A DNA stretch of 64,000 nucleotides from an uncultured Bacillales bacterium (lineage in GTDB: Bacteria > Bacillota_I > Bacilli_A > RF39 > UBA660): assembly GCA_948433085.1 (NCBI GenBank), contig CAOJDP010000001.1:15642-79641 (forward strand), in the 5' to 3' direction. Positions 37,728 through 52,341 of this stretch are shown here, piece by piece; the first letter of the stretch is position 1, and each line of letters begins with the position of its first letter. The position numbers and the translations under genes are program-made. A model generated the notes under the pieces. That model was not told the origin of the DNA. It was given only the letters and a program-made list of their open reading frames with translations, and made no database searches.

Positions 37728-39542
37728 TCATGAAATTGTCTTTATTTGAAATATTCTAAGTGCATTTAAAATCGTTAAAACGGTTACACCTACATCTGCA
37801 AAAACTGCCCCCCACATACTAGAAATCCCTATCAAACCTAAAAATAAAATGAGTATTTTAACGGTTAATGCAAAGATAATATTACACTTCACAATTTTTT
37901 TTGTTTGTTTGGCAATCTGAATAGCTGTTAAAAGTAAACTAGGATCATCGTTCATAATTACAATGTCGCTTGCTTCAATTGCTACATCACTTCCAATCCC
38001 ACCCATGGAAACACCAATATCTGCTTTCATCAAAACAGGCGCATCATTCATGCCATCACCAACAAATATTATCTTATTTGTTTCCTGCTCAGCTTTCACA
38101 AGTTCTACTTTATCTGTAGGAAGAAGATTTGCATAAACTTCATCCATGTGCAACTTCATCCCTACTTCTTTTACAGTTCTTTCATGATCCCCTGATAATA
38201 ATATGGCTTTTTGAATGCCAACCTCTTTTAAATGATCAATCAAACCATAAGCGGTTTCTTTTATCGTATCTTCTATTATAATAGCACCGATATATTCATG
38301 ATTACAGGCCACATAAACAATAGTCCCTAATGTATCAAGTTTGGAACATACAATATTATTTTCTTGCATAAACGTTTTAGACCCTACATGTATTTTTTTG
38401 TCCCTTATTATTACTTCAATTCCCTTCCCTACAATTTCCTGATAAGATTCTATGGTGTCTGTAAGCGGTTTTGAATATGCTTTTTGAATGGACAAAGCAA
38501 TTGGATGATTTGAATTACTTTCAGCAAGTGCGGCTAAGCGCAAAATTTCCTCCTTTCTTTCTTTTGGGATAATCTTAGACACTTCAAATTTACCTTTCGT
38601 AAGTGTTCCTGTTTTATCAAATACGACTGTGTTCATCTGATCTAAATTTTCTAACGATAATGTATTTTTAATTAAAATCCCCTTTTTACTGGAAACACCG
38701 ATTCCTGAGAAAAAACCAATTGGAATGGATACCACTAAAGCACATGGACATGAAATCACTAAAAATAGGAGTGATTTATAAAACCATATAGAAAAAGGTT
38801 GATGAAAAATAACAGGAATAACTGTAAGCAACATAGCGAATATCACAACAATTGGCGTATAATAATTTGCAAACTTGGTAATAAACTTCTCTTGCTGTGT
38901 TTTCGTTTCACCAGATTGTTCCATCAAACGAAGAATTTTAGAGACTGTAGATTCTTGATATAATGTGGTTACTTTTATTTCTAAAATACCTTCTTTATTC
39001 AAACAACCGCTGATGACAACATCATTTGGTTTTACTGTTTTTAAAATAGATTCTCCTGTCATTGACGATGTATCTAAATGGCTATTCCCAGATAAGATAA
39101 TACCATCTAATGGTATTTTTTCTCCTGGTTTTACAATTATAATATCATTTACTTTGATTTCTTCGATTGGAATGGTAAAAACTCCATTTTTACGTTTAAG
39201 ATGCGCTACATCACTTCTTAAATCCATAAGTTTACCAATTGCATCCTTCGTTTGATCGGTCGCAAAATCACTTAAATATTCACCTATTTGATAAAATAAA
39301 ATAACAGCCACTGCTTCTGGATATTCTTTTATGATAAAGGCCCCCAGTGTCGCAATTACCATAAGAAACTTTTCATCCAATATTTTGAATTTTGGAATAT
39401 TTTTAATGACATCTATCCAAATCGGATATGCAAGTAAACTATAAGCCAAGATGAGTACGATAGGATAAATTGCATTTTTAGGTAGGAAAAAGGAAACCAA
39501 AAATAAAAATCCACCCATTCCTATTTTATAAATCGTTTTCAT
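37728..39542 (-). CDS. cadA: Cd/Zn-type heavy-metal P1B-ATPase
   Basis: CPC motif in TM6 (SCPCALVVSIPIG), phosphorylation motif DKTGTLT and hinge GDGMNDAP. There is no N-terminal HMA domain. It is co-operonic with an ArsR regulator. Confidence 0.85.
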   Translation of the reverse strand: MKTIYKIGMGGFLFLVSFFLPKNAIYPIVLILAYSLLAYPIWIDVIKNIPKFKILDEKFLMVIATLGAFIIKEYPEAVAVILFYQIGEYLSDFATDQTKDAIGKLMDLRSDVAHLKRKNGVFTIPIEEIKVNDIIIVKPGEKIPLDGIILSGNSHLDTSSMTGESILKTVKPNDVVISGCLNKEGILEIKVTTLYQESTVSKILRLMEQSGETKTQQEKFITKFANYYTPIVVIFAMLLTVIPVIFHQPFSIWFYKSLLFLVISCPCALVVSIPIGFFSGIGVSSKKGILIKNTLSLENLDQMNTVVFDKTGTLTKGKFEVSKIIPKERKEEILRLAALAESNSNHPIALSIQKAYSKPLTDTIESYQEIVGKGIEVIIRDKKIHVGSKTFMQENNIVCSKLDTLGTIVYVACNHEYIGAIIIEDTIKETAYGLIDHLKEVGIQKAILLSGDHERTVKEVGMKLHMDEVYANLLPTDKVELVKAEQETNKIIFVGDGMNDAPVLMKADIGVSMGGIGSDVAIEASDIVIMNDDPSLLLTAIQIAKQTKKIVKCNIIFALTVKILILFLGLIGISSMWGAVFADVGVTVLTILNALRIFQIKTIS

Positions 39543-39832
39543 TGTTTTTTCCTTTCTAATATATGCTCATATCCATATTTTAATATAGTCACGATATGCG
39601 TATCTGCTAAAGTATAGTAAACTGTTTTTCCTACTTTTTCATTTTTGACAAAATTTTGACTTCTCAGTACTTTGAGTTGATGAGAAATAGAAGAATGTGT
39701 CATATGCAATTGTTCAGCAATCTCACTAACACAACGTTTTTGATCACACAGTGTATTTAATATTTTAAGGCGGGTAACATCCCCAAATACTTTATAAAAT
39801 TCACTCAATTCATAAATAACTTCTTGTTGCAT
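39539..39832 (-). CDS. cadC: ArsR/SmtB-family metalloregulator (CadC-like)
   Basis: HTH region RLKILNTLCDQKRCVSEIAEQLHMTHSSISHQLKVL. An ATGA overlap with cadA. Confidence 0.8.
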   Translation of the reverse strand: MQQEVIYELSEFYKVFGDVTRLKILNTLCDQKRCVSEIAEQLHMTHSSISHQLKVLRSQNFVKNEKVGKTVYYTLADTHIVTILKYGYEHILERKKQ

Positions 39833-39952
39833 TTACTACCTCCTTATATGATTATATGTTCATATATTCATATTATATGTATTTCCAGCATCAATGTCAA
39901 TAAAAAATCTCTAATTAAGAGATTTTTCTAAGATAAGTACTTTTTCGTTTCT

Positions 39953-40432
39953 TTATGATACAATTGTATTATTTTTCGAAATTTTTTTATTTAAAGTTTT
40001 TCCTAACACTTGTTCCACTTCCGAAACTGTCTTTTCAATCATTCCAGAGTTATCAATAATAAAATCAGAAGAAATCCCTCGTTTTTGAATATTTGCCTCG
40101 TTAAAATCTTCTGCGTCCACTAAAAATCTCCTACACATCTCTTCATATTTAGGATACACTTGTGTTTTTTCTCTATCCAAAGCACGTTGTAATCGAGTTC
40201 CAGAATCCATCTGGAATAAAATGGGCACTATATTTTCTTTTCCATAATATGCTACAAATTGATCATACCCAACCAATGTATTAATGGTAATATAATTATA
40301 TGCATTTAAATTTATACTCTGCGCTCCCGCAAAATAATGCCAACTTCCATACATCGTACAGTAGGAACGCAATTCTATAATTTGATTTTCATTTTGCTTT
40401 TTGAAATATCCTTCTAGGAAGCCCAATTGCAT
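39953..40432 (-). CDS. Guanylate-kinase-like domain protein lacking an obvious P-loop
   Basis: The C-terminal two-thirds parallels the Gmk core and lid (…LQRALDREKTQ…DFIIDNSGMIEKTVSEVEQVL), but there is no GxxGxGK motif. It may be degenerate or non-catalytic. Confidence 0.35.
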   Translation of the reverse strand: MQLGFLEGYFKKQNENQIIELRSYCTMYGSWHYFAGAQSINLNAYNYITINTLVGYDQFVAYYGKENIVPILFQMDSGTRLQRALDREKTQVYPKYEEMCRRFLVDAEDFNEANIQKRGISSDFIIDNSGMIEKTVSEVEQVLGKTLNKKISKNNTIVS

Positions 40433-40511
40433 TTCTTCCTACTAACCTAAATAAAGCATTCCCTTTTTATAGCAAATATTATAGACCAATGCAAACATGT
40501 GATAAATAAAC

Positions 40512-42725
40512 TTATTTCAACTTCATACGTTTTAATCTTAAAGAATTCATCACGACTGTAAAACTACTGAACATCATTGCAATACTTGCAAACATTGGAT
40601 TCATGGTAACACCAATAAACCGAAATAACCCCATAGCAATCGGTATCATCAATAAGTTATAAAAAAAAGCCCAAAATAAATTTTGTTGAATATTATGGAT
40701 AGTATTTTTACTGATGGTGATCAAATTCAAAATACCATATAAATCATTATGCGTTAGAATCACTCCTGCTGAATTAGAAGCTATATCACTTGCACCTTGA
40801 AAACTGATCCCAATATCTGCAAGTACTAAAGCAGGACTATCATTAATTCCATCTCCACACATCATAACTGTTTTATGCTCTGCTTTTAATGTTTGAACAA
40901 TAGATGCTTTGTCTTTTGGCAAAACATCCGCAATTACATCTGTAATCCCAATTTGATTGGCAATTTTTAAAGCTGTATTTTTATGATCCCCTGTCAACAT
41001 CATAACTTCAATTTTTCTTCTTTTTAATTCTGCTATAAATTCTTTCGTATTTTTTCTTACAATATCATTGATTCCAATCAAACCAACAATGGTTTGATTC
41101 TCTACTACATAAACAATACTATTTCCCTTTTGAACAAGTTGTTCTTCCTCTTTTTGATAGGGATTTGCAATTGCAAATTGTTTTAATAATTTAGCATTTC
41201 CAACAAGGATTTGACAACTTCCTCTGTTACCAACCATCCCATATCCACTCATTTCTTGTACCACTTCTATAGAATAGGGCTTTAACTGGTGTTCTTGCAT
41301 ATATGTAATAAATGCCTTTCCAAGAGGATGAGAAGATTTTACTTCTAAACTACCTGCAAGTCGAATTACCTCACTCTCTTCTCTTCCATATAACAATATA
41401 CTTTCTATTTTAGGGATTCCATAAGTAATCGTTCCTGTTTTATCAAGAACAATGGTATCTACTTTACAAGCATTTTCTAAAATTTCACTTTTTTTGACTA
41501 AAATACCATTCTTAGCACAAATACCTTCCGCTACCACAATCGCAAGGGGTGTAGCAAGTCCTAAACTACAGGGACAAGCAACCACTAAAATGGTAACAAA
41601 ACATATGAGCACATCTGGAAAAGATTCTCCAATCCACAAGTAAGCTATTGCAGTGAAAAAAGCAATCATCAAAACACTCGGTACAAAATAGCTACTTACT
41701 TTATCTGCCAAGGAAGCAATAGGCGCTTTGGTACTAGTTGCTTCTACAACTAATTTTACAATCTCAGAAATAGTAGACTCCGCCCCAATTCGTTCTGCTC
41801 GATATTCTAAATAACCATCATCGTTAATGCTTCCTGCTAACACTTGATTCCCCTCTATTTTTTTTACTGGTTTACTTTCGCCTGTTATAAATGCTTCATC
41901 TATATGTGCAGCTCCTCTAGTAATAATTCCATCTACAGCAATTTTCTCACCCCTACGAACACATAGAATATCTCCTTTTTGAATAGAATCTATTGTTACA
42001 TTCGTCTCTTTTCCATTTTTTAAAACAGTAGCGTATTTAGGTGTCATCTGTACCAAATTCTGAATCGCCTCTTTGGTTTTGTTTTTACTTTTTGAATCAA
42101 TATACCTACCTAATTTTATAAAATAGATAATCATTCCCACAGATTCAAAGTATAATTGTTCAACATAGGTTACATTTCCTTTTAAAATTTGGGACATACT
42201 ATATAAACTATAAAAGAAACTGCTCATGATTCCAATTGTAACTAAAGTATCCATATTGGGTGCTTTATAAATTAAATTATGATATCCACTTTTTAGGATG
42301 TCTTTTCCATAATAGAGAAAAAGAATAGACATTAAAAATAATACAATCGTATAGGTCTTTAAAGATTGTTGAACATCCAATATTGCAATATTGGGTAAAC
42401 CCATCCTATGGCTCATAGAAATATAAAAAAATACAATTATCAAAATGGTATAAACAATCCATTTTTGTTTTTCTGATTTTAAATTATCGTTTTCATTCTG
42501 TTCTTGCCATACCCCTAAACTTTTAAATCCAGCTGTTTCAATATATTGTTCAATTTCTTCTATGGTAACATGCCCATCATATTCTACAAGTACATTTTCC
42601 ATCACTAAATTTACACTTGCTTGAATTCCTTTTTGTTTGTTTAAATATTTTTCCAAGCCATTTGAACAAGCACTACAAGTCATACCTCCTACTTTTAGAA
42701 TAATTTTTTGCATATCATTCCCCAA
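40512..42725 (-). CDS. copA: Copper-translocating P1B-ATPase CopA
   Basis: N-terminal HMA domain GMTCSACS, CPC motif ACPCSLGLATP, DKTGTIT and GDGINDSPAL. Confidence 0.9.
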   Translation of the reverse strand: MGNDMQKIILKVGGMTCSACSNGLEKYLNKQKGIQASVNLVMENVLVEYDGHVTIEEIEQYIETAGFKSLGVWQEQNENDNLKSEKQKWIVYTILIIVFFYISMSHRMGLPNIAILDVQQSLKTYTIVLFLMSILFLYYGKDILKSGYHNLIYKAPNMDTLVTIGIMSSFFYSLYSMSQILKGNVTYVEQLYFESVGMIIYFIKLGRYIDSKSKNKTKEAIQNLVQMTPKYATVLKNGKETNVTIDSIQKGDILCVRRGEKIAVDGIITRGAAHIDEAFITGESKPVKKIEGNQVLAGSINDDGYLEYRAERIGAESTISEIVKLVVEATSTKAPIASLADKVSSYFVPSVLMIAFFTAIAYLWIGESFPDVLICFVTILVVACPCSLGLATPLAIVVAEGICAKNGILVKKSEILENACKVDTIVLDKTGTITYGIPKIESILLYGREESEVIRLAGSLEVKSSHPLGKAFITYMQEHQLKPYSIEVVQEMSGYGMVGNRGSCQILVGNAKLLKQFAIANPYQKEEEQLVQKGNSIVYVVENQTIVGLIGINDIVRKNTKEFIAELKRRKIEVMMLTGDHKNTALKIANQIGITDVIADVLPKDKASIVQTLKAEHKTVMMCGDGINDSPALVLADIGISFQGASDIASNSAGVILTHNDLYGILNLITISKNTIHNIQQNLFWAFFYNLLMIPIAMGLFRFIGVTMNPMFASIAMMFSSFTVVMNSLRLKRMKLK

Positions 42726-42927
42726 CTATTTGAAATCCTAAATTTTCAATTTTTTCTTGAATTGTTGAAAGAAGCGCTTCCTCTGTTATAACTGTAACAA
42801 TTCCCGTATTATAATCTGCTTTTACCAATTCTATTGGATGCAATTGACGAATTGCATTTTGAATTCTATTTTCACATCCTGTGCATTCCATTCCCTTTAC
42901 TTGTATTTTAAATTCTTTCATATGCAT
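42715..42927 (-). CDS. copZ: Copper chaperone CopZ
   Basis: 70 aa with the HMA motif GMECTGCENRI. Confidence 0.85.
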   Translation of the reverse strand: MHMKEFKIQVKGMECTGCENRIQNAIRQLHPIELVKADYNTGIVTVITEEALLSTIQEKIENLGFQIVGE

Positions 42928-44118: not shown

Positions 44119-44943
44119 TTACTTTATCAGGTTATAGATTGGATTATTTGTTATAGATGCCAATTTATGTTTTATAACTATTTTTACGCTACCAAACTGA
44201 CCAGTATCAATAATCGCTGTTATTCCATTATCTTCGTACCCCAAAATGGTATAAGAAAGTCCTTTAAAATGAGAAGGTTTTAACATACCCTTCGCATTCT
44301 TTACAACTGGCTGTACTCCTAAATCATAGATTCTCCATGTATCTGCATATTCACTTAAATTCAGATACATTTTATTTTCTTCTAATGAAATATCATTCAC
44401 ATCATCTAAATATTTCCAATCGGCAATTCCTAATAATATGTTAGTATCATTCATGAAAAATACATTTTCTAGTGGAATTTGATTTGGTATACAATATACT
44501 CCATATTGATTTTTTACCCAAGTATCCTGTTTTCCTCTACCTACCTCAATATGGGAGTGTACTCCTGTTGCATTTCCTGCATTCCCCATATTTCCAATTT
44601 GAACACCTTGTTTAATCGTTTGCCCAATATAACAGTTAATAGTATTATCATGACCACACAAGAAAGTAACATAATCAATTGTACCATCTGCAAATCTCAC
44701 TTTTTCTATTGATTGCCACCATACAAATGAATAAGTTCTATTTATATTCACACATCTTACATCGACTGGTGCATAATATGGATAACGGATTCCTGCTCTT
44801 AGTCCTCTAATATCATTGGCCTCGCTCCCTCTATGGGAATAGGAATCATTTGCTCCCTGTGTACAATACCAATCCGTAAAAGGACATAGTACATCTTGAA
44901 TTCCATTTCTTTTACTGGTATCACCCTTTTTCATGCGTCTCAC
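44119..44943 (-). CDS. Phage-type endolysin with an N-terminal M23 peptidase domain and a C-terminal wall-binding region
   Basis: M23 signature GNMGNAGNATGVHSHIEV. There is no signal peptide. It lies immediately downstream of, and overlapping, a holin gene. Confidence 0.7.
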   Translation of the reverse strand: MRRMKKGDTSKRNGIQDVLCPFTDWYCTQGANDSYSHRGSEANDIRGLRAGIRYPYYAPVDVRCVNINRTYSFVWWQSIEKVRFADGTIDYVTFLCGHDNTINCYIGQTIKQGVQIGNMGNAGNATGVHSHIEVGRGKQDTWVKNQYGVYCIPNQIPLENVFFMNDTNILLGIADWKYLDDVNDISLEENKMYLNLSEYADTWRIYDLGVQPVVKNAKGMLKPSHFKGLSYTILGYEDNGITAIIDTGQFGSVKIVIKHKLASITNNPIYNLIK

Positions 44944-45286
44944 CTGTATTCATTTTTTCAAAATATTTTTTGAATGGCAAATGAATTCCTACTTCACCTA
45001 AATTTTCATAGATAGAAATACCTTCAGTTGCAATGCAAACAATTGCACTACCAATTAAAAATAGATGTATTTGCATAAAATAGTCAATTACAAAGCCTAA
45101 TAATAAAGCGATAATCCATGCGATCTTTTTGATATGTCCATCTCTTGAAATAGATGAATTTATTGTTCTATGTTTAAAGGCCTTTAGATAGCCTGTAATC
45201 ACATCTGTAAAAATGAAGATTCCACATAATAGAAATAACGTTTTTGGTTCACTCACATTCATTAATTTTTCGATAAATTCTTCCAT
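44921..45286 (-). CDS. Phage holin of the phage_holin_4_1 (LL-H/TcdE-like) family
   Basis: 121 aa with three TM segments. The hallmark FTDVITGYLKA...SS.S..G.IKKIAWII pattern is present. Confidence 0.8.
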   Translation of the reverse strand: MEEFIEKLMNVSEPKTLFLLCGIFIFTDVITGYLKAFKHRTINSSISRDGHIKKIAWIIALLLGFVIDYFMQIHLFLIGSAIVCIATEGISIYENLGEVGIHLPFKKYFEKMNTGETHEKG

Positions 45287-45760
45287 TTCATTTCCTCTTT
45301 TCTATGTAAAAGATAGGGATTTGCAAATTCATTTTCTTCTACAACAAAAACATATCACTTTTTTCACTGGACTTTCACTAGACATAAGGCAATTTTATAA
45401 AAAAAATTTAGATTTTGCTCTAAATTTTTTCTTGGAAATTTAATATTTTCATTATTTATTCATAATAATAATCTTTGTAAATATTTAATTTTTTACCATT
45501 GATTTTTATTGTCTTTTCATCCAACCATTCCATCTCGGCATCATAATCATGGTATCTATAATAAATATTGTATTTTTTATTATTAGAATTATTTATAACT
45601 TCTACACGTAAACTCCAGTCTACTTATTGATTAATTTTGGGAATGGTAAATAATTGCACCCATACGAATGTAATAAGTATCATGTGGATCATCACAGAAT
45701 GTAGCAAAAAAACAATTTAAATAATATGCCTGCCATATCTCATCAAAGTTTATTATTAAA

Positions 45761-45961
45761 TTATTTTATTTTGAAATTTTTTAACTTTTCATTATTGATT
45801 GTAATCGTAATGTAGTCTCCTATTGCATGTGGCACTTCAAAACTTAAACCAACGTTTTTATCTTTTAAGTAGCTCATGATATTAGATTTTAAATCTGCAT
45901 TTTTTAACAATTCTTTCAAATCATTATCATTATAACTATCTAGGATAATTGATTTTTCCAA
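45761..45961 (-). CDS. Small hypothetical protein
   Basis: 66 aa, immediately downstream of the lipoprotein gene. No family. Confidence 0.3.
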   Translation of the reverse strand: MEKSIILDSYNDNDLKELLKNADLKSNIMSYLKDKNVGLSFEVPHAIGDYITITINNEKLKNFKIK

Positions 45962-45967
45962 ATTTAC

Positions 45968-46426
45968 TTATTTTTTAAATTCTTCTTTAAATAATTCTAC
46001 AAAATCATCATCAATATTATATAAGTTATTTAAATATACTTTTTTATTTTGCGAAATATTTATATTAATTGTCTTAAAAATATTAGTTGGATGTGCAGCT
46101 GTTTCAACGTTTCCCGTTCCTGTATATACAATACTTATCATATCTTTTCCTTGATAGGAAATCTCATAATTAATGTTCAATGTCAATCCTTCATATATGT
46201 TATCATAATAATCTTGCACAAAAGATATAATGTCATTTTCTATAATCTTATTAATTAAATCAAACTTCCCATCAATAAATCTAGGATATTTAACATACAT
46301 CTTGGAAGTAGGTGTATAACTTTCTGATGTATAATCATAGGATGCATTATCCTCTAATACAAAATTTACATTGTTACTACACCCTATAGTAAATAAACAT
46401 AATGCAAATATAATAATTTTTTTCAT
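45968..46426 (-). CDS. Lipoprotein with a DUF3298/RsiV-C-like domain; candidate immunity protein for the adjacent GH19-like toxin
   Basis: Signal peptide plus lipobox FTIGCS. AAHPTNIFKTININISQNKKVYLNNLY resembles DUF3298. It sits directly 3' of the Rhs tip remnant. Confidence 0.5.
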   Translation of the reverse strand: MKKIIIFALCLFTIGCSNNVNFVLEDNASYDYTSESYTPTSKMYVKYPRFIDGKFDLINKIIENDIISFVQDYYDNIYEGLTLNINYEISYQGKDMISIVYTGTGNVETAAHPTNIFKTININISQNKKVYLNNLYNIDDDFVELFKEEFKK

Positions 46427-46469
46427 TCTATCTCCCCATCTATTTAAATACCGAATATATTTTATTATA

Positions 46470-47422
46470 ATACTCTTGTCTTTTCTCCCATGTACTTAAC
46501 TAATCTTGTTATATCCTTTACTGTAGCCCCATTAGATATTCTATCATTCATTTTTTATTAGTCCAAAACCAACCAGCTACATCTCAAGCATAATTTGCTG
46601 CTACATAATCTACACCTTGATTATAAATTTCTGGATCACCCATTGCCTTTGAAAAACTTTCATAATTATAGCTCCATGTCAATTGTATATATCCTGCTCC
46701 TCTATACTTATACCCATAAGCTTTTGTAGAAAAATTTGTTTGCTACCAATTTCAGTTAGCCACATACCAAAATTAGTTTCATAAGCACACTGAGCTAAAA
46801 AATGACTTTTCTGTTTGGGAGTTTCAATATTATTTTGATGTAAGGTTATATTAAGTTGCTTAGCATTACTATAAATAGTATCCATAAAGCCAACTGTCTC
46901 TAAATTATTTTTTAAATCTACCACTTCAACAAATTCTTGCGTTATTTTTTTTTGTGGTATCAAAGAAGCTAGTAGCCAAATTTACAAAAGGATTTTGTCC
47001 GTCCAAATCACTGAACATAATCATATTGTTATTTGCATACATATATAAATTATATCTACATGTTTCTATATTATTTCCAAATAATCCATCTGCATTTAAA
47101 AATCTACCCCAAGCAGGATTATAATACCTACTATTTAGATAATAAAGATTTGTTTCTGAATCATAATAGTAACTTCTATATCTGTAGGGATTGATGCTTG
47201 CTATATGACTATTCCATTACCATCTGTGATAGATATGATATTACCCCATGCATCATAAGTATACCTTGTTACTACATTATCATTACTATCTAATATTCCT
47301 ATAATATCATTTTGAGCATTTTTTATATAATAATAGATTTCATTATTATATTGTAATCCAATTAAACCATCTGTCTCATTACGTAAATAGTATATCAAAT
47401 TATTGCCTGTTCTTTCAAACAT
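46470..47422 (-). pseudogene. Frameshifted orphan Rhs/YD-repeat toxin tip comprising a YD repeat, the Rhs core terminus and a GH19 chitinase/lysozyme-like C-terminal domain
   Basis: My minus-strand translations give RYTYDAWGNIISITDGNG, then after a frameshift YYYDSETNLYYLNSRYYNPAWGRFLNADG...NLYMYANNNMIMFSDLDGQNPF (Rhs core end). Further frameshifts give SHFLAQCAYETNFG, KAYGYKYRGAGYIQLTWSYNY and DVAGWFW (GH19 motifs). The ORF-track pieces 47201..47422 and 46679..46963 (the latter starting on TTG) are fragments of this. Confidence 0.7.
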
Positions 47423-47451: not shown

Positions 47452-47703
47452 TTAGTATTCTTCATAGATTAATTGTTCCTTTGGAGTAGGAACAAACTTA
47501 TCATCTACAAATTTTATTCCTATTGATTTTAAATATTCATATTCTTCTTCATTTTCACAAAATATATCACATATTTCTTCATGCGCTACTGAATATAACC
47601 AACAGTAACCATTCTTATAAAAACATAAATCTTCTAATGATGTTAGAAAACACCAATCATAAATTGATTTTTTATTTAATAATTCCTTATTTTCCTCTTG
47701 CAT
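47452..47703 (-). CDS. Small acidic hypothetical protein; possible orphan immunity protein
   Basis: 83 aa, Cys- and Glu-rich, lying immediately 5' of the orphan Rhs module as immunity genes usually do. No family recognised. Confidence 0.35.
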   Translation of the reverse strand: MQEENKELLNKKSIYDWCFLTSLEDLCFYKNGYCWLYSVAHEEICDIFCENEEEYEYLKSIGIKFVDDKFVPTPKEQLIYEEY

Positions 47704-48066: not shown

Positions 48067-48771
48067 TTATACTGACTTTTTCTTTCCCTTTGTCGATTCT
48101 TTTGAACTTCCTTGTATTTTTTTAAAATCTTTTAATTCTTTCTGTACTTCTTCTAAAGTTAGCATTGTTTGTTTTTGTTTTGTATTCATAAATATTAAAA
48201 TGATAGTAGTTGATGTGATAAAAAATACTAAATTCCATAGAATAATTACGACAGAACTATCCATCTTATTCTTTGATTTTTCTAATTCCTTCATTACATC
48301 ATAACTATTTTTACTTTCATATTGATCCATGATTGCTGCTTTGATTTGGTCATTGTAGGAATCAGAATATCCTGGAAAAACACGATCTCCAATTATAATA
48401 AATGGAACGCCTCCTGCATCTGCACCTAAAAATGTTGCGACCTCTTCTAACAATGTTGCATTTTCTTGACTTTGCCAAGTTTCAAAAGAAACCACTTTAA
48501 AATACTGTCCATATTCTCCTACAATACTATTTAAAAATGTTAAAAAGTTTTTACAAAAACTGCAACCATGTCCTCTAAATAAATAGATAACAGCTTGATC
48601 ATCTGTTTCTTTGTAATTAGATAAATCATGTTCAATTCCTTCTTGTGCCAACGCTTCTTCAAAATTCAATGTTTCATAAGATTTTCCTGCTACTTTAATT
48701 ACAGAACTCGCAAACATTTGATTTGGAATTAATATTAGACCAATTACTAATATACTTAAAAATTTCTTCAT
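48067..48771 (-). CDS. Thioredoxin-fold thiol-disulfide oxidoreductase (DsbA/Bdb-like) with a signal peptide and C-terminal TM segment
   Basis: CxxC motif GHGCSFCKNF. The start was set at ATG 48771 (MKKFLSILVIG), with a GGAGG RBS. Confidence 0.65.
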   Translation of the reverse strand: MKKFLSILVIGLILIPNQMFASSVIKVAGKSYETLNFEEALAQEGIEHDLSNYKETDDQAVIYLFRGHGCSFCKNFLTFLNSIVGEYGQYFKVVSFETWQSQENATLLEEVATFLGADAGGVPFIIIGDRVFPGYSDSYNDQIKAAIMDQYESKNSYDVMKELEKSKNKMDSSVVIILWNLVFFITSTTIILIFMNTKQKQTMLTLEEVQKELKDFKKIQGSSKESTKGKKKSV

Positions 48772-48961
48772 ACTATACCTCCTTACCCATTGTAGCATTT
48801 CTCTTATTATTTTACAATATTTGCAAATCAAATTTTGTGAAATATATGTGATAATTGTATTTTGAATTCCAATAACCTAAAATCTAATAAGATACAATTT
48901 TAAGCTATCCTTTATATTTTATAATTCACTTTCTAAAACATTATAACGAAAAAAAAAGCAA

Positions 48962-49714
48962 CTATGCTTCTTCAATTACAATACTATTTAAAATATCTTG
49001 TATAGTTGCATCATCAAAGTAATCTAAACCAAAAAATGTAAGTATATAACATTTATCTTGCTCTAAAATACTAACCTGTTTCACTTTATCTTGCATATTT
49101 AAAATATAACCTATTTTATCTCCCTCAATTTTTGTTAAGGAATCAATACTAGGAATAGCACTAGACAAAATGTTTCGTATAATATAATTTTCTTTCATTT
49201 GTTTCACACTTGTAAATAAATGATCTTTTTTTATTTTTTGTTGACTTAAATATTCAAATAATTCAATATCATTCGTAATTTTATGTTTTTTAAAAAAAGC
49301 AATCATATCTTTATTGGTAATACCAACAGGAAAATCTTCCATAACTTCATCCGTTTGAAATCTTTCTACATTAGATTCTGAAACACCTATCCAAAAAGAA
49401 GCAATCATTTTACGATCATCATCGTACAATACGTACTTACTAAAATTCTCCATATCGTTTAAGTCATCAGGTCTCTCAAATTTTTGTACAACATTTTTTA
49501 CATTAAAATTTTGAAATTTTAAATACTCAGTTGTAGGCTGAGTCTTTATATGAATTGTATCTTTAAATACTAGATTCTGATACAATTCTTCAACGGAATC
49601 TATTTCATACCCGCCTGAATTATAAATAAACCAATTATATCCTTTATAACCAAAATAACCGCCAACGAAAAGGACAACCGCTATCATTCCCCCTATTATT
49701 GTTTTCATTCTCAT
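48962..49714 (-). CDS. Hypothetical membrane-anchored protein
   Basis: The start was set at ATG 49714 (MRMKTIIGGMIAVVLFVGG), with a GAGGAG RBS. A single N-terminal TM segment is followed by an extracytoplasmic domain. Confidence 0.5.
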   Translation of the reverse strand: MRMKTIIGGMIAVVLFVGGYFGYKGYNWFIYNSGGYEIDSVEELYQNLVFKDTIHIKTQPTTEYLKFQNFNVKNVVQKFERPDDLNDMENFSKYVLYDDDRKMIASFWIGVSESNVERFQTDEVMEDFPVGITNKDMIAFFKKHKITNDIELFEYLSQQKIKKDHLFTSVKQMKENYIIRNILSSAIPSIDSLTKIEGDKIGYILNMQDKVKQVSILEQDKCYILTFFGLDYFDDATIQDILNSIVIEEA

Positions 49715-49937
49715 ACACTCACTCCTCAAAAATAGAATACATGAAATCACAATAAAAGTAAATACAATTTTGTCCCCGATGTAAAACGAATGACTATATA
49801 AAATTGACGTTCCAACTATCAATTTCAATGTATATAATAGGACTTTAAAAAAGGGTAGCTCAATATGAAATTGATAGAATTTATAAAAAAAAATAGTACA
49901 ATGATAGAAATTGATTCCTCTTTCACATAATATCGTT

Positions 49938-51338
49938 TTAACGTGTTTTCTGATTTTCAAGATTTTGATTTTTCATTGATTCTAAAAATGCAAACTTTTC
50001 TTCTAAATAGGGATCTTTTATCTCCATTAAATAACTTTTTACCATCTCAATTAACATTTGAAACAACTGTTCAAAGGACAAATTTTGGTGATACAGTTGT
50101 TGCATATGGAATGACAAATTCATACCAAATTGATACAACAAATACTGATTATAATGATACATATCACCTTCTAATAATGCTTCAGGCGTTTCTTTTTGTT
50201 TCAACCTATTGATTTCTTTTTCTAAAAATTGAAGTCTTTCTAACAATTCTAATGTATGATTTTCTTCATTCCATTGCCTTTTTTCTTTTTGTTTCAAAAC
50301 ATCTGTATTTAACTCACAATCCTTTATATTTACACGCAATTGTTGATATTCACAAGTACGTGTTTTTATTTCAACTTCATTTTTTTCTTTTGCCAATTCT
50401 ACTAACAGTTGTAATCCCTCTGTTGTAAACTTTTGCATACACAAAGCAATAGACGCTTCCATATCTACATCCTTATAACACTTATTATTTTTCGCTAGCA
50501 AAAGGGTAAGGATAGCAAATATTTCTGTAATAAAATTATGATATTTTTGAGGAATATGAATCAACTCTAAATTGGAAAATTTCCACCTATCACGTGTTTG
50601 TTTTGGTAATATAAACATAAGTAACATATAAAGTTGAAAATAGATATGATAGGTTTTCACAGATGGAACTTCATTTTCCTGCGTTGCAAGCAATTTGTTA
50701 TATTTTTTATTTTCTAATAATCTTTCATGGTAAATAGCATCCCCCTCACTTAACATACGCATCATATCAAATGAAAATGGATACTCACTAGAATAATAAT
50801 AACCATCGAAAAATTGACTTGCGTGTCGCAATTCATGATGAAAATTTTCAGGAAAATTACTTGAAGCCATGATTTCAATTGCTCTAGTGGTTTTTGTAGA
50901 TTTGCACACTCCAATTGTCAATAAAGCATAAGTACCATTTTCATTATCTAATACATATTGTTCCTTCTCTTTTCTAAATCTCTGAAAAACAGGATATGCA
51001 TGTGGAATTTTTTCCATATGTTTGTAAAAATAATTAGTTGAATCATTTAATATATCATCTAATCCATAAATTTTTAATGAATCAAGTTTTTCCAAAATAT
51101 GAAAATTTTCTTGAATATATTTTTCTACAGGTGTGTGCTCTAAAATATTCTTATTGGAATCATAGTGCTCTACCATTGATAACAACCAAAGTTTTAAAAA
51201 CATTTGATAAAATTCATTCAATTGCTTTTCTTGCATAATCTTCTCAAGTTGTTCATAATATTGAAAATATATTTTTGCTTTCCTACTCTGTTTTTGTTCA
51301 TATTTTTCTAACAATTCTTTATAATAATCCATTCGCAA
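49938..51338 (-). CDS. Hypothetical protein with an HExxH motif; putative zincin-like metallopeptidase
   Basis: 466 aa. HHELRHASQFF is the only recognisable motif, and a coiled-coil-rich C-terminal half follows. Confidence 0.45.
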   Translation of the reverse strand: MRMDYYKELLEKYEQKQSRKAKIYFQYYEQLEKIMQEKQLNEFYQMFLKLWLLSMVEHYDSNKNILEHTPVEKYIQENFHILEKLDSLKIYGLDDILNDSTNYFYKHMEKIPHAYPVFQRFRKEKEQYVLDNENGTYALLTIGVCKSTKTTRAIEIMASSNFPENFHHELRHASQFFDGYYYSSEYPFSFDMMRMLSEGDAIYHERLLENKKYNKLLATQENEVPSVKTYHIYFQLYMLLMFILPKQTRDRWKFSNLELIHIPQKYHNFITEIFAILTLLLAKNNKCYKDVDMEASIALCMQKFTTEGLQLLVELAKEKNEVEIKTRTCEYQQLRVNIKDCELNTDVLKQKEKRQWNEENHTLELLERLQFLEKEINRLKQKETPEALLEGDMYHYNQYLLYQFGMNLSFHMQQLYHQNLSFEQLFQMLIEMVKSYLMEIKDPYLEEKFAFLESMKNQNLENQKTR

Positions 51339-51828: not shown

Positions 51829-52341
51829 CTAATAAATTACTTTATCTTTTTGATTTTGATAAAACTCATACTCTTTTATCGTTTCTTCCCGGTCCATACA
51901 TTGAAAAGATAAAATCTTTTTATCTTCAATCCCTTGCATTAAATTTTCAATATAATGATAAATAAAATCATCCCTGAATCCTATTTCATCTGTATCTTTT
52001 CTTGTATTTCCATAATAACATTTTTTGATGTTAGCCCAGATAATTGCAGAAAAACACATTGGACAAGGATAACTTGTAGTATAAATTTCACATCCTGATA
52101 AATCATGTGTATTTAAGTATCTACAAGCATCACGAATGGCTTCTATCTCTGCATGAGCAGTTGGGTCATGCATACCTAATACATTGTTAAATCCTTTTCC
52201 AATGATTTCTCCATTTTTTACAATACAAGCCCCAAACGGTCCACCAGCTTTCCTTTTTAAGTTACTATTTGCAAGCATTTTTGCTTCTCTCATATACAAA
52301 TTCATGTTTACAACTCCTTTTAATCTTTCCAATACCACCAT
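51829..52341 (-). CDS. guaD: Guanine deaminase (CDA-fold), GuaD-like
   Basis: GGPFGACIVKNGEIIGKGFNNV, PTAHAEIEAI, YPCPMCFSAIIWA and GFRDDFIY are collinear with B. subtilis GuaD. The true start is probably the internal MREAK. Confidence 0.75.
   Translation of the reverse strand: MVVLERLKGVVNMNLYMREAKMLANSNLKRKAGGPFGACIVKNGEIIGKGFNNVLGMHDPTAHAEIEAIRDACRYLNTHDLSGCEIYTTSYPCPMCFSAIIWANIKKCYYGNTRKDTDEIGFRDDFIYHYIENLMQGIEDKKILSFQCMDREETIKEYEFYQNQKDKVIY

Follow-up and report, generated by a model that had tools for sequence, protein, structure and literature searches.

A fossil Rhs toxin-immunity module with a GH19-like tip and a candidate lipoprotein immunity gene of predicted RsiV-ectodomain fold

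We analyzed a 64,000-nucleotide stretch of DNA from an uncultured Bacillales bacterium (contig CAOJDP010000001.1, hereafter the window) that holds, at 45761..46426, a lipoprotein gene directly 3′ of the remnant of an Rhs gene whose variable C-terminal tip resembles glycoside hydrolase family 19 (GH19) enzymes. The G+C content of the window is 29%, and the Rhs remnant, the tip and the lipoprotein gene all lie on the minus strand. We interpret this locus as the decayed remains of an orphan Rhs C-terminal module, toxin plus immunity gene, of a low-GC Gram-positive bacterium. We are confident, short of certainty, that intact relatives of the lipoprotein are the cognate immunity proteins of the GH19-like tip, and in our judgement the odds lean slightly toward their doing so specifically by occluding the active site of the enzyme, as RsiV does with lysozyme. 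What supports the immunity reading, namely conserved gene order and predicted fold, concerns the gene family; a working system in the window itself is not supported. Operationally, a polymorphic-toxin immunity protein is one whose gene lies directly downstream of the toxin tip and co-varies with it across lineages, and which neutralizes the cognate toxin. Relatives are labelled P#### (proteins) and L### (loci), with a reference tip and P0001 serving as the standards of comparison.

Results

A lipoprotein gene follows the GH19-like Rhs tip in every sampled lineage

The candidate immunity gene comprises 221 codons and is broken at codon 153, as delimited by homologues, a family hidden Markov model (HMM) and a structure model; because its homologues go down to E = 1.5e-132, we take it to be a real gene. 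A Shine-Dalgarno sequence, GGGGAG (46432..46437), lies 5 nucleotides (nt) before the ATG. The N-terminus of the product, MKKIIIFALCLFTIGC, has a positively charged n-region (MKK), a hydrophobic stretch and the lipobox F-T-I-G-C16; signal peptide and lipobox (MKKIIIFALCLFTIG followed by Cys16, the predicted lipidation site) are encoded at 46379..46426, the lipobox being judged from its sequence pattern alone. An earlier sequence-only reading of this DNA had described a lipobox-bearing lipoprotein and a further 66-amino-acid (aa) open reading frame (ORF) in the orientation of a degraded Rhs/GH19 tip, and had proposed them as immunity genes. The lipoprotein signals, the minus-strand positions of both ORFs and their orientation all held up.

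We then asked what lies behind the tip elsewhere, using a sample of nine lineages of the GH19-like Rhs tip that are 40–100% identical to the reference tip. The next gene downstream was a member of the lipoprotein family in 9/9 lineages, with 10–20 nt between toxin stop and immunity start in eight of them and 104 nt in one. At L001 and L002, an intact tip ends 13 nt before an intact lipoprotein gene. At L004–L009, the gap between a homologous tip and the P0003 gene is 15 nt; some of these tips run on from an Rhs core, and others are orphans beginning with MYYDPNGQ. Compared with the L001-type pair, these tips are 63% identical but the lipoproteins only about 30%. A tip-profile search found 88 tip relatives, and seven chosen from these for the toxin-side sample (P0161, P0166, P0171, P0176, P0188, P0195 and P0204; 72–40% identical) are each followed by a gene for a protein of 229–256 aa that matches the family HMM at E = 4e-17 to 3e-46. 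The order of tip and lipoprotein is thus kept while the lipoproteins diverge to 20–40% identity, and the genes flanking the pairs are completely different between lineages. In the alignment, nine of ten toxin-linked family members carry the lipobox cysteine, the exception having a hydrophobic anchor at its N-terminus instead. The linkage of homologues to toxin genes, which the sequence-only reading had named as a check on its proposal, was therefore found throughout the sample, and the genomic part of the operational definition, a position directly downstream of the tip and co-variation with it, holds in all nine lineages.

At L003, only the last ~35 codons of the toxin are left, whereas the lipoprotein gene (P0002) is intact, as one would expect if an orphan immunity gene were retained because it protects. 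The ratio of non-synonymous to synonymous substitution rates (dN/dS) between the intact lipoprotein copies in L001 and L003 is 0.23, by which measure purifying selection on intact copies is shown.

Several of the pairs (L004–L009, L050, L051 and L052/L053) are embedded in arrays made up of further orphan toxin-immunity modules of the Rhs or PT-HINT kind, among them DUF4329 tips, Imm32 and Imm-NTF2-2, with an M23 tip in L046. The arrays in L050, L052 and L053 end at serine recombinase genes, and that in L004 begins with a recombinase-associated DUF4368 protein; these borders suggest that the arrays are mobile toxin-cassette islands.

The tip resembles GH19 endolysins and effector domains

Base-by-base comparison with the intact copy in L001 places the pseudogenized lysozyme- or endolysin-like tip at 46440..46997, with its original TAG stop at 46442..46440. 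The tip scores 24.9–25.0 bits against PF00182 (E = 2e-5; gathering score 25.5). When a two-sequence tip profile was searched against the PDB, the best match was the C-terminal domain of TseP (8XCL, 7e-9), followed by the Streptomyces chitinase 2CJL (1.4e-7) and the GH19 endolysins 9MS7, 9EOI and 4OK7, with GH19 chitinases and endolysins ranging from 1e-7 to 1e-3. We also modeled the tip structure, on the homologue P0162 (57% identical to the tip) and not on the window copy. The model (predicted local distance difference test, pLDDT, 88.8) matched best the GH19 endolysins 9MS7 (1.3e-7), 9EOI, 4OK7 and 8P8E in Foldseek, with GH19 chitinases, TseP-C (8XCL) and the type IV secretion system (T4SS) effector TfcB (7R6S) among further matches; the top 50 were all GH19 endolysins or chitinases or GH19-like effector domains.

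GH19 enzymes are defined by a Glu-Glu-Ser/Thr triad and the motif Y-x-G-R-G-x-x-Q-[IL]-[ST]-x-x-x-N-Y (PMC11253643). The corresponding triad of the tip consists of the Glu in CAYET, the Glu in WLTE and the Thr in IQLT, and its motif, YRGAGYIQLTWSYNY, is an endolysin-like variant that fits 11 of the 15 positions. Both catalytic glutamates are invariant in the nine paired tips; across 55 homologues, there is no exception at the first and hardly any at the second. In the window, the catalytic residues are still encoded, but on both sides of frameshifts. TseP-C has been described as a lysozyme domain, and the immunity protein TsiP inhibits the peptidoglycan-hydrolyzing activity of TseP and of both its domains (PMC11893102). 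By analogy, the tip would cleave peptidoglycan, as a muramidase rather than a chitinase.

Metagenome contigs scanned with the tip yielded only distant GH19 genes (30–37% identity; freshwater, marine and soil) with no member of the lipoprotein family nearby; these are probably phage genes, and the scan says nothing on the Rhs branch to which the tip belongs. Viral contigs scanned with the tip and with the lipoprotein held no relatives of either.

The window retains an orphan 3′ fragment of the Rhs gene

The Rhs/YD-repeat shell survives as a 73-aa ORF at 47201..47422, and the repaired translation of 47422..46930 matches RHS_repeat (PF05593) at E = 3.8e-7. Frame translations place the end of the Rhs core at 46998..47198, in a shifted frame (frameshift near 47200), and the equivalent segment is continuous with the Rhs core in L001, L055, L007 and L048. 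Directly before the tip stands a core end of the PxxxxDPxG type, which reads ...YMYANNNMIMFSDLDGQ in the window and NNPVMYYDPNGQ and NNPINMADPNGS in homologues. The core model TIGR03696 (Rhs_assc_core) matched P0162 at E = 2.5e-6 and 27.9 bits, below the family cutoff of 32.5. In place of a full-length Rhs shell with an intact frame, the window thus holds ~160 core codons and a tip with five lesions. A tblastn search of the 64 kb with the longer Rhs fragment of L055 matched only 47422..46929, and the largest ORF anywhere in the window is 743 aa, so the locus is an orphan 3′ Rhs fragment and not the end of a full Rhs gene. A promoter and terminator scan gave 25 promoter-like sites against 25.6 expected by chance, and zero terminators.

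The lipoprotein is predicted to adopt the fold of the RsiV ectodomain

For the lipoprotein, we modeled P0001, which is 97% identical to the repaired window gene, with AlphaFold2 from an 11-sequence alignment, and searched the model against the PDB with Foldseek. The model (pLDDT 81.8; predicted template modeling score 0.78) shows an N-terminal beta/alpha domain (~28–123), a helical segment (132–175) and a C-terminal sheet (183–211). The best match was 3CYG (3.9e-10), followed by 5JEN, the RsiV-lysozyme complex (1.3e-8; template modeling score 0.54–0.58), 4E72 (PA4972; 8e-7) and 3S5T (BF2082; 1.5e-5). The six matches at E ≤ 1e-3 all belong to the DUF4163 + DUF3298 structural family, with 203–247 aligned columns, and the next match had E = 0.05. 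The predicted fold of the lipoprotein is thus that of the RsiV ectodomain, with its two domains DUF4163 and DUF3298, the outcome that the sequence-only reading had anticipated from structure prediction.

Sequence comparison reached this family less far. PF13739 (PdaC/DUF4163) was matched by 8 of 11 family members, at best at 4.8e-11; family profiles of 5 and of 10 members searched against the PDB found 3CYG only (4.9e-4 and 4.2e-5, respectively) and did not reach 5JEN; and NCBIfam holds no model for the lipoprotein. The sequence-only reading had seen a DUF3298/RsiV-C-like segment. By sequence this was not borne out, there being no PF11738 match, but structurally it was, with the resemblance running over DUF4163 and DUF3298 and not the C-terminal part alone.

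In RsiV, the ectodomain consists of tightly associated DUF4163 and DUF3298 domains; it engages C-type lysozyme at the active-site pocket, with contacts to E35 and D52, and inhibits the enzyme almost completely at a 1:1 molar ratio (PMC5014341). Residues K137 and H139 of the DUF4163 part contact lysozyme, and a C-terminal loop (P259, Y261) contributes to inhibition, most clearly when combined with S169W (PMC5014341). RsiV has been proposed as the first member of a new Gram-positive lysozyme inhibitor family, and 3CYG, 4E72 and 3S5T were listed as its structural relatives that are not encoded near extracytoplasmic function (ECF) sigma factors (PMC5014341).

The lipoprotein shares with the RsiV ectodomain (Bacillus subtilis, Clostridioides difficile and Enterococcus faecalis; 5JEN) the predicted fold, over ~215 columns at E = 1.3e-8, and a predicted position tethered to the outer face of the membrane of a Gram-positive cell. 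Unlike RsiV, it lacks a cytoplasmic sigma-V-binding domain and a transmembrane helix, being anchored by lipid through its lipobox; no sigV or other sigma factor gene is adjacent; its presumed partner is a bacterial GH19 tip and not a C-type (GH22) animal lysozyme; and sequence identity to RsiV is about 16–18%, with PF11738 unmatched. Without an anti-sigma domain, a transmembrane helix or an adjacent sigma factor gene, the lipoprotein is not an RsiV orthologue, but by analogy it may still work like the RsiV ectodomain. Its best structural matches, 3CYG (from Fervidobacterium nodosum), 4E72 and 3S5T, are structural-genomics proteins without known function or known toxin partner.

Only a subset of the lipoprotein family is linked to toxins

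Several observations weigh against the lipoprotein being an immunity protein of the RsiV type. On the side of the fold, the window's N-terminal piece of 152 aa reaches PF13739 only weakly (E = 0.099, 14.2 bits, cutoff 29.1), and PF11738 (DUF3298) matched neither the window pieces or the fused protein at E ≤ 1 nor the 11 family members at E ≤ 0.1. On the side of the target, RsiV inhibits a GH22 lysozyme, from another glycoside hydrolase family than GH19, and many lysozyme inhibitors of one class fail on other classes (PMC5014341); the presumed substrate of the tip is peptidoglycan, but it may be chitin. Binding and inhibition of the tip by the lipoprotein are inferred.

The family is also large, with 2523 cluster representatives at E ≤ 1e-3 and 1117 at E ≤ 1e-10. 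Lachnospiraceae, Clostridia, Ruminococcus and Oscillospiraceae assemblies hold relatives, as does Paenibacillus massiliensis. Using the pattern [FL]E[VA]PHA[IL]GD, we found six distant genome copies (23–27% identical to the query), in Clostridia and Lachnospiraceae assemblies and in P. massiliensis, whose neighbors are leuS, gyrB/gyrA, ABC-F or trpE genes; up to 6 kb away from each of the six, GH19 genes are absent. Because distant copies occupy such housekeeping contexts without a GH19 toxin nearby, the fold is widely used and not specific to immunity, with only a subset of the family linked to toxins. Nor do the conserved loops mark that subset: AAHP (110–113) and EVPHAIGD (197–204) occur family-wide and are degenerate in the toxin-linked L048, L051 and L052, so they are more likely structural than toxin-specific contacts. 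The two loops could not be aligned to the RsiV contact residues. In a neighbor-joining tree of 152 family members, the toxin-linked ones do not group as one clade among the best-ranked representatives and their common ancestor spans the whole tree, which is compatible alike with one or with several recruitments to toxin linkage. The top match of the family search (E = 4.6e-278), P0012, has 2307 aa with 11 nearly identical tandem copies of a DUF4163/DUF3298-like unit; if it did not arise in assembly, it is a remarkable case of a repeat protein.

These observations could be taken to mean that the lipoprotein is an ordinary DUF4163/DUF3298 envelope protein that adjoins the Rhs remnant by chance or serves in export, maturation or sensing. 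The size of the family, the toxin-free housekeeping contexts of its distant members and the fact that RsiV is itself primarily a sensor and anti-sigma factor would all fit. However, the tip-lipoprotein order persists in 9/9 lineages despite divergence and changed neighbors, the lipoprotein has neither a cytoplasmic anti-sigma domain nor a sigma factor gene beside it, and L003 keeps an intact copy where the toxin has been deleted. We therefore regard an ordinary envelope role as improbable, and prefer cognate immunity for the toxin-linked members.

Toxin and immunity gene are both broken in the window

Over 47121..45651 the window is 96.3% identical in nucleotides to the intact L001, and comparison of the two revealed five disabling lesions in the tip: a +1 insertion at 46953, a -1 deletion near 46736, a Trp179-to-stop change at 46584, a -1 deletion at 46557 and an 11-bp deletion at 46497. 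As a result, the tip is broken over two frames, with FLAQCAYETNFGMWLTEIGS in one and YGYKYRGAGYIQLTWSYNY in the other. The same lesions recur in independent assemblies. L055, which is 2.4% divergent from the window, has every indel and the stop in the immunity gene in common with it, and yet retains 306 codons of continuous Rhs sequence upstream of the tip. Judging from these shared lesions, the decay is older than the split of the window and L055 strains, and the Rhs body was lost later in the window strain.

The lipoprotein gene is interrupted by a premature TAA at 45968..45970, at a position where P0001 carries Gln153 (CAA), that is, by a CAA-to-TAA change (Q153*). The stop falls at the end of a predicted helix (140–153), ahead of the C-terminal sheet with E-V-P-H-A-I-G-D. 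Mapped on the P0001 model, the first domain would be preserved in a 152-aa product but not the C-terminal sheet, and this DUF3298-equivalent sheet would lie mostly inside the 66-aa piece. Apart from the stop, the window and L001 copies of the gene differ by 7 synonymous and 6 non-synonymous changes, and this low dN/dS (0.19) indicates that inactivation was probably recent relative to the divergence of the copies. With Q153* in the immunity gene and a toxin remnant bearing at least five disabling lesions, both genes read as dead in the window, and it is likely that neither works today. The GH19-like identity of the toxin tip upstream, as the sequence-only reading had it, therefore stands, but as that of a pseudogene with five lesions and not of an intact toxin. 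Likewise, an immunity gene next to the tip is upheld for the family, by linkage in 9/9 lineages and by fold, while the window copy is dead (Q153*) and is one gene, not two.

A less final view is that the truncated 152-aa lipoprotein is still made and gives some protection against kin with intact toxin, so that the locus is not fully dead. The start, the Shine-Dalgarno sequence, the lipobox and the whole N-terminal DUF4163-like domain are intact; in RsiV, K137 and H139 of that domain contact lysozyme; the stop allele persists in assemblies from several samples; and strains with intact toxin exist at 96% DNA identity (L001). However, truncation removes the C-terminal sheet together with the most conserved motif of the family, the C-terminal loop of RsiV (P259, Y261) contributes to inhibition, and between two stop-carrying strains we counted 6.5 non-synonymous against 0.5 synonymous changes, very small counts that fit relaxed constraint. 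Residual protection is in our estimate very unlikely, and we hold to the reading of a dead locus.

The two ORFs left by the stop, of 152 aa (46426..45968) and 66 aa (45961..45761), are in one frame, separated by the TAA (45970..45968) and two more codons. When searched as a joined sequence, they are spanned by single homologous proteins of 220–245 aa (P0001 to P0004), which are 97%, 74%, 30% and 35% identical to the joined window protein, respectively, and the family HMM matches both window pieces (2.8e-52 and 2.5e-21). Given the common frame, the spanning homologues and the CAA at the stop position in P0001, the two ORFs are one lipoprotein gene with a nonsense mutation. That they are instead two separate genes, acting together or alternatively as immunity factors, as the sequence-only reading had allowed by listing a lipoprotein plus a 66-aa ORF, is scarcely credible: each ORF has a possible start codon (ATG and TTG) and the gene callers of public assemblies annotated them separately, but a single TAA divides one frame where the nearest homologue has CAA, all intact homologues are single proteins, and the 66-aa piece has no signal peptide and holds half a domain.

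Identical split ORFs with the same stop are present in three metagenome loci (L054, L055 and L056; nucleotide identity to the window 97.6% for L055, and 99.97% and 100% for the other two), and an exact-sequence look-up returned the same split products on record for several contigs, including an 80.8-kb National Center for Biotechnology Information (NCBI) contig. We rejected an assembly error on the strength of these three loci and the NCBI contig. Recoding of the internal stop was also rejected, because 24 of 43 long ORFs in the window end in TAA, more than in any other genuine stop codon.

Neighboring genes

The other genes described here are likewise on the minus strand. Directly downstream of the module, at 44119..45286, the gene of a phage-type holin (121 aa; PF05105, E = 2e-18) runs into the beginning of that of an M23-like peptidoglycan hydrolase of 274 aa (PF01551, 7e-6; NF052336, 3e-6), and the same pair, at 88% nucleotide identity, follows the orphan immunity gene in L003. 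The pair may serve in lysis, as a cassette, or may export the wall-active toxin by way of the holin. Between immunity gene and holin, at 45450..45760, the window has short broken frames. The equivalent segment holds an intact DUF2691 gene in L003 (PF10903, E = 4.5e-22) and different small ORFs in L001; strains differ at this junction.

The Rhs remnant is closely preceded, at 47452..47703, by an acidic, Cys-rich ORF of 83 aa that matches no Pfam or NCBIfam model and recurs unchanged in L054, possibly an immunity gene orphaned from another module. At 48067..48831 lies the gene of a 254-aa protein with an N-terminal signal or anchor, a C-terminal hydrophobic segment and a weak thioredoxin-like match (PF13098, E = 1e-3), which is conserved beside the module in L054. 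Two overlapping ORFs of 466 aa (49938..51338) and 332 aa (48962..49960) match nothing in Pfam or NCBIfam; the 466-aa protein contains the motif HELRH (HExxH) and may be an uncharacterized metallopeptidase. A 170-aa cytidine/deoxycytidylate-type deaminase (51829..52341) matches PF00383 at E = 2e-25 and the MafB19-like family PF14437 at E = 4e-19; a housekeeping role as a TadA- or ComEB-type enzyme is more probable for it than one as a toxin. Farther away, at 37728..42927, translations indicate a metal-resistance cluster with P-type ATPases of 604 and 737 aa (CPC and GMTCSAC motifs), an ArsR-like regulator of 97 aa and a metal-binding, CopZ-like protein of 70 aa.

Discussion

We propose the following scheme for intact modules of this kind. 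An Rhs protein would end in a GH19-type glycoside hydrolase tip of ~170 aa, with a Glu-Glu-Thr triad and a KYRGAGYIQLTWxYNY motif, that, by analogy with GH19 phage endolysins and TseP-C, would cut the peptidoglycan glycan strands of a neighboring cell from outside the membrane; the export route of the toxin is inferred. Because such an enzyme attacks the wall outside the membrane, an extracytoplasmic antidote would be needed, which fits a lipoprotein. The gene 10–20 nt downstream would supply it: a lipoprotein of the predicted RsiV-ectodomain fold that sits, lipid-anchored, on the outside of the producer's membrane. Much as RsiV handles C-type lysozyme, it would bind the tip and obstruct the catalytic cleft, and in this way protect producer and kin. 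In the window, this module has decayed to a toxin without an Rhs body, carrying three frameshifts, a nonsense codon and an 11-bp deletion, and an immunity gene ended by Q153*.

Orphan Rhs and contact-dependent inhibition (CDI) modules consist of a truncated Rhs 3′ end, a variable tip and then the cognate immunity gene. The layout here is the same, and related loci hold the arrays with DUF4329 tips, Imm32 and Imm-NTF2-2; unlike in the usual orphan Rhs modules, both partners are pseudogenes in the window. The nearest counterparts by toxin domain are TseP/TsiP, of a type VI secretion system (T6SS) of Aeromonas dhakensis, and TfcB, of a T4SS of Stenotrophomonas maltophilia. Both have a GH19-like toxin domain as here (TseP-C, 8XCL, being the best PDB sequence match of the tip at 7e-9, and both 8XCL and TfcB 7R6S being structural matches), and in both systems a cognate immunity protein neutralizes the enzyme outside the cytoplasm. 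They differ in being Gram-negative T6SS and T4SS cargo, whereas the tip described here is the Rhs tip of a Gram-positive. We found no report of TseP or TfcB immunity proteins with a DUF4163/DUF3298 fold, although no direct comparison with TsiP was made.

The lysozyme inhibitors Ivy, MliC/PliC, PliI and PliG belong to Gram-negative bacteria and act against animal lysozymes. They have the same proposed job, that of an envelope protein plugging the active site of a muramidase, but their folds are unrelated to that of the lipoprotein, which matched none of them in Pfam at E ≤ 1. In Pfam-A, including its Imm families, and in NCBIfam, the immunity family has no model beyond the weak PF13739 match, and a full-text literature search, with subscription journals outside its scope, found no paper linking DUF3298, DUF4163 or RsiV with polymorphic-toxin immunity. 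Rhs tips followed by immunity genes and extracytoplasmic immunity to peptidoglycan hydrolases are both already known; the pairing of a GH19 tip with an RsiV-fold protein we did not find described.

A wider idea, about which we are doubtful, is that Gram-positives use the RsiV fold generally as a fast-evolving scaffold for inhibiting peptidoglycan glycosidases, of which RsiV (against GH22) and the lipoprotein (against GH19) would be two instances. If it were true, many of the thousands of uncharacterized lipoproteins of this fold, including those in housekeeping contexts and P0012, would be inhibitors of foreign or self muramidases.

The window copy is a dead remnant, and its value lies in its relatives. 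Through them, one branch of the DUF4163/DUF3298-like lipoproteins, a family of 2523 cluster representatives, gains a testable job and a defined partner. They would show the RsiV fold next to a muramidase for a second time, independently of RsiV itself, and so provide a candidate for the Gram-positive lysozyme-inhibitor family with a GH19 target. The pairs collected here, with tips 40–100% identical to the reference and immunity proteins 20–100% identical to P0001, form a panel for studying how specificity between such toxins and their immunity proteins evolves.

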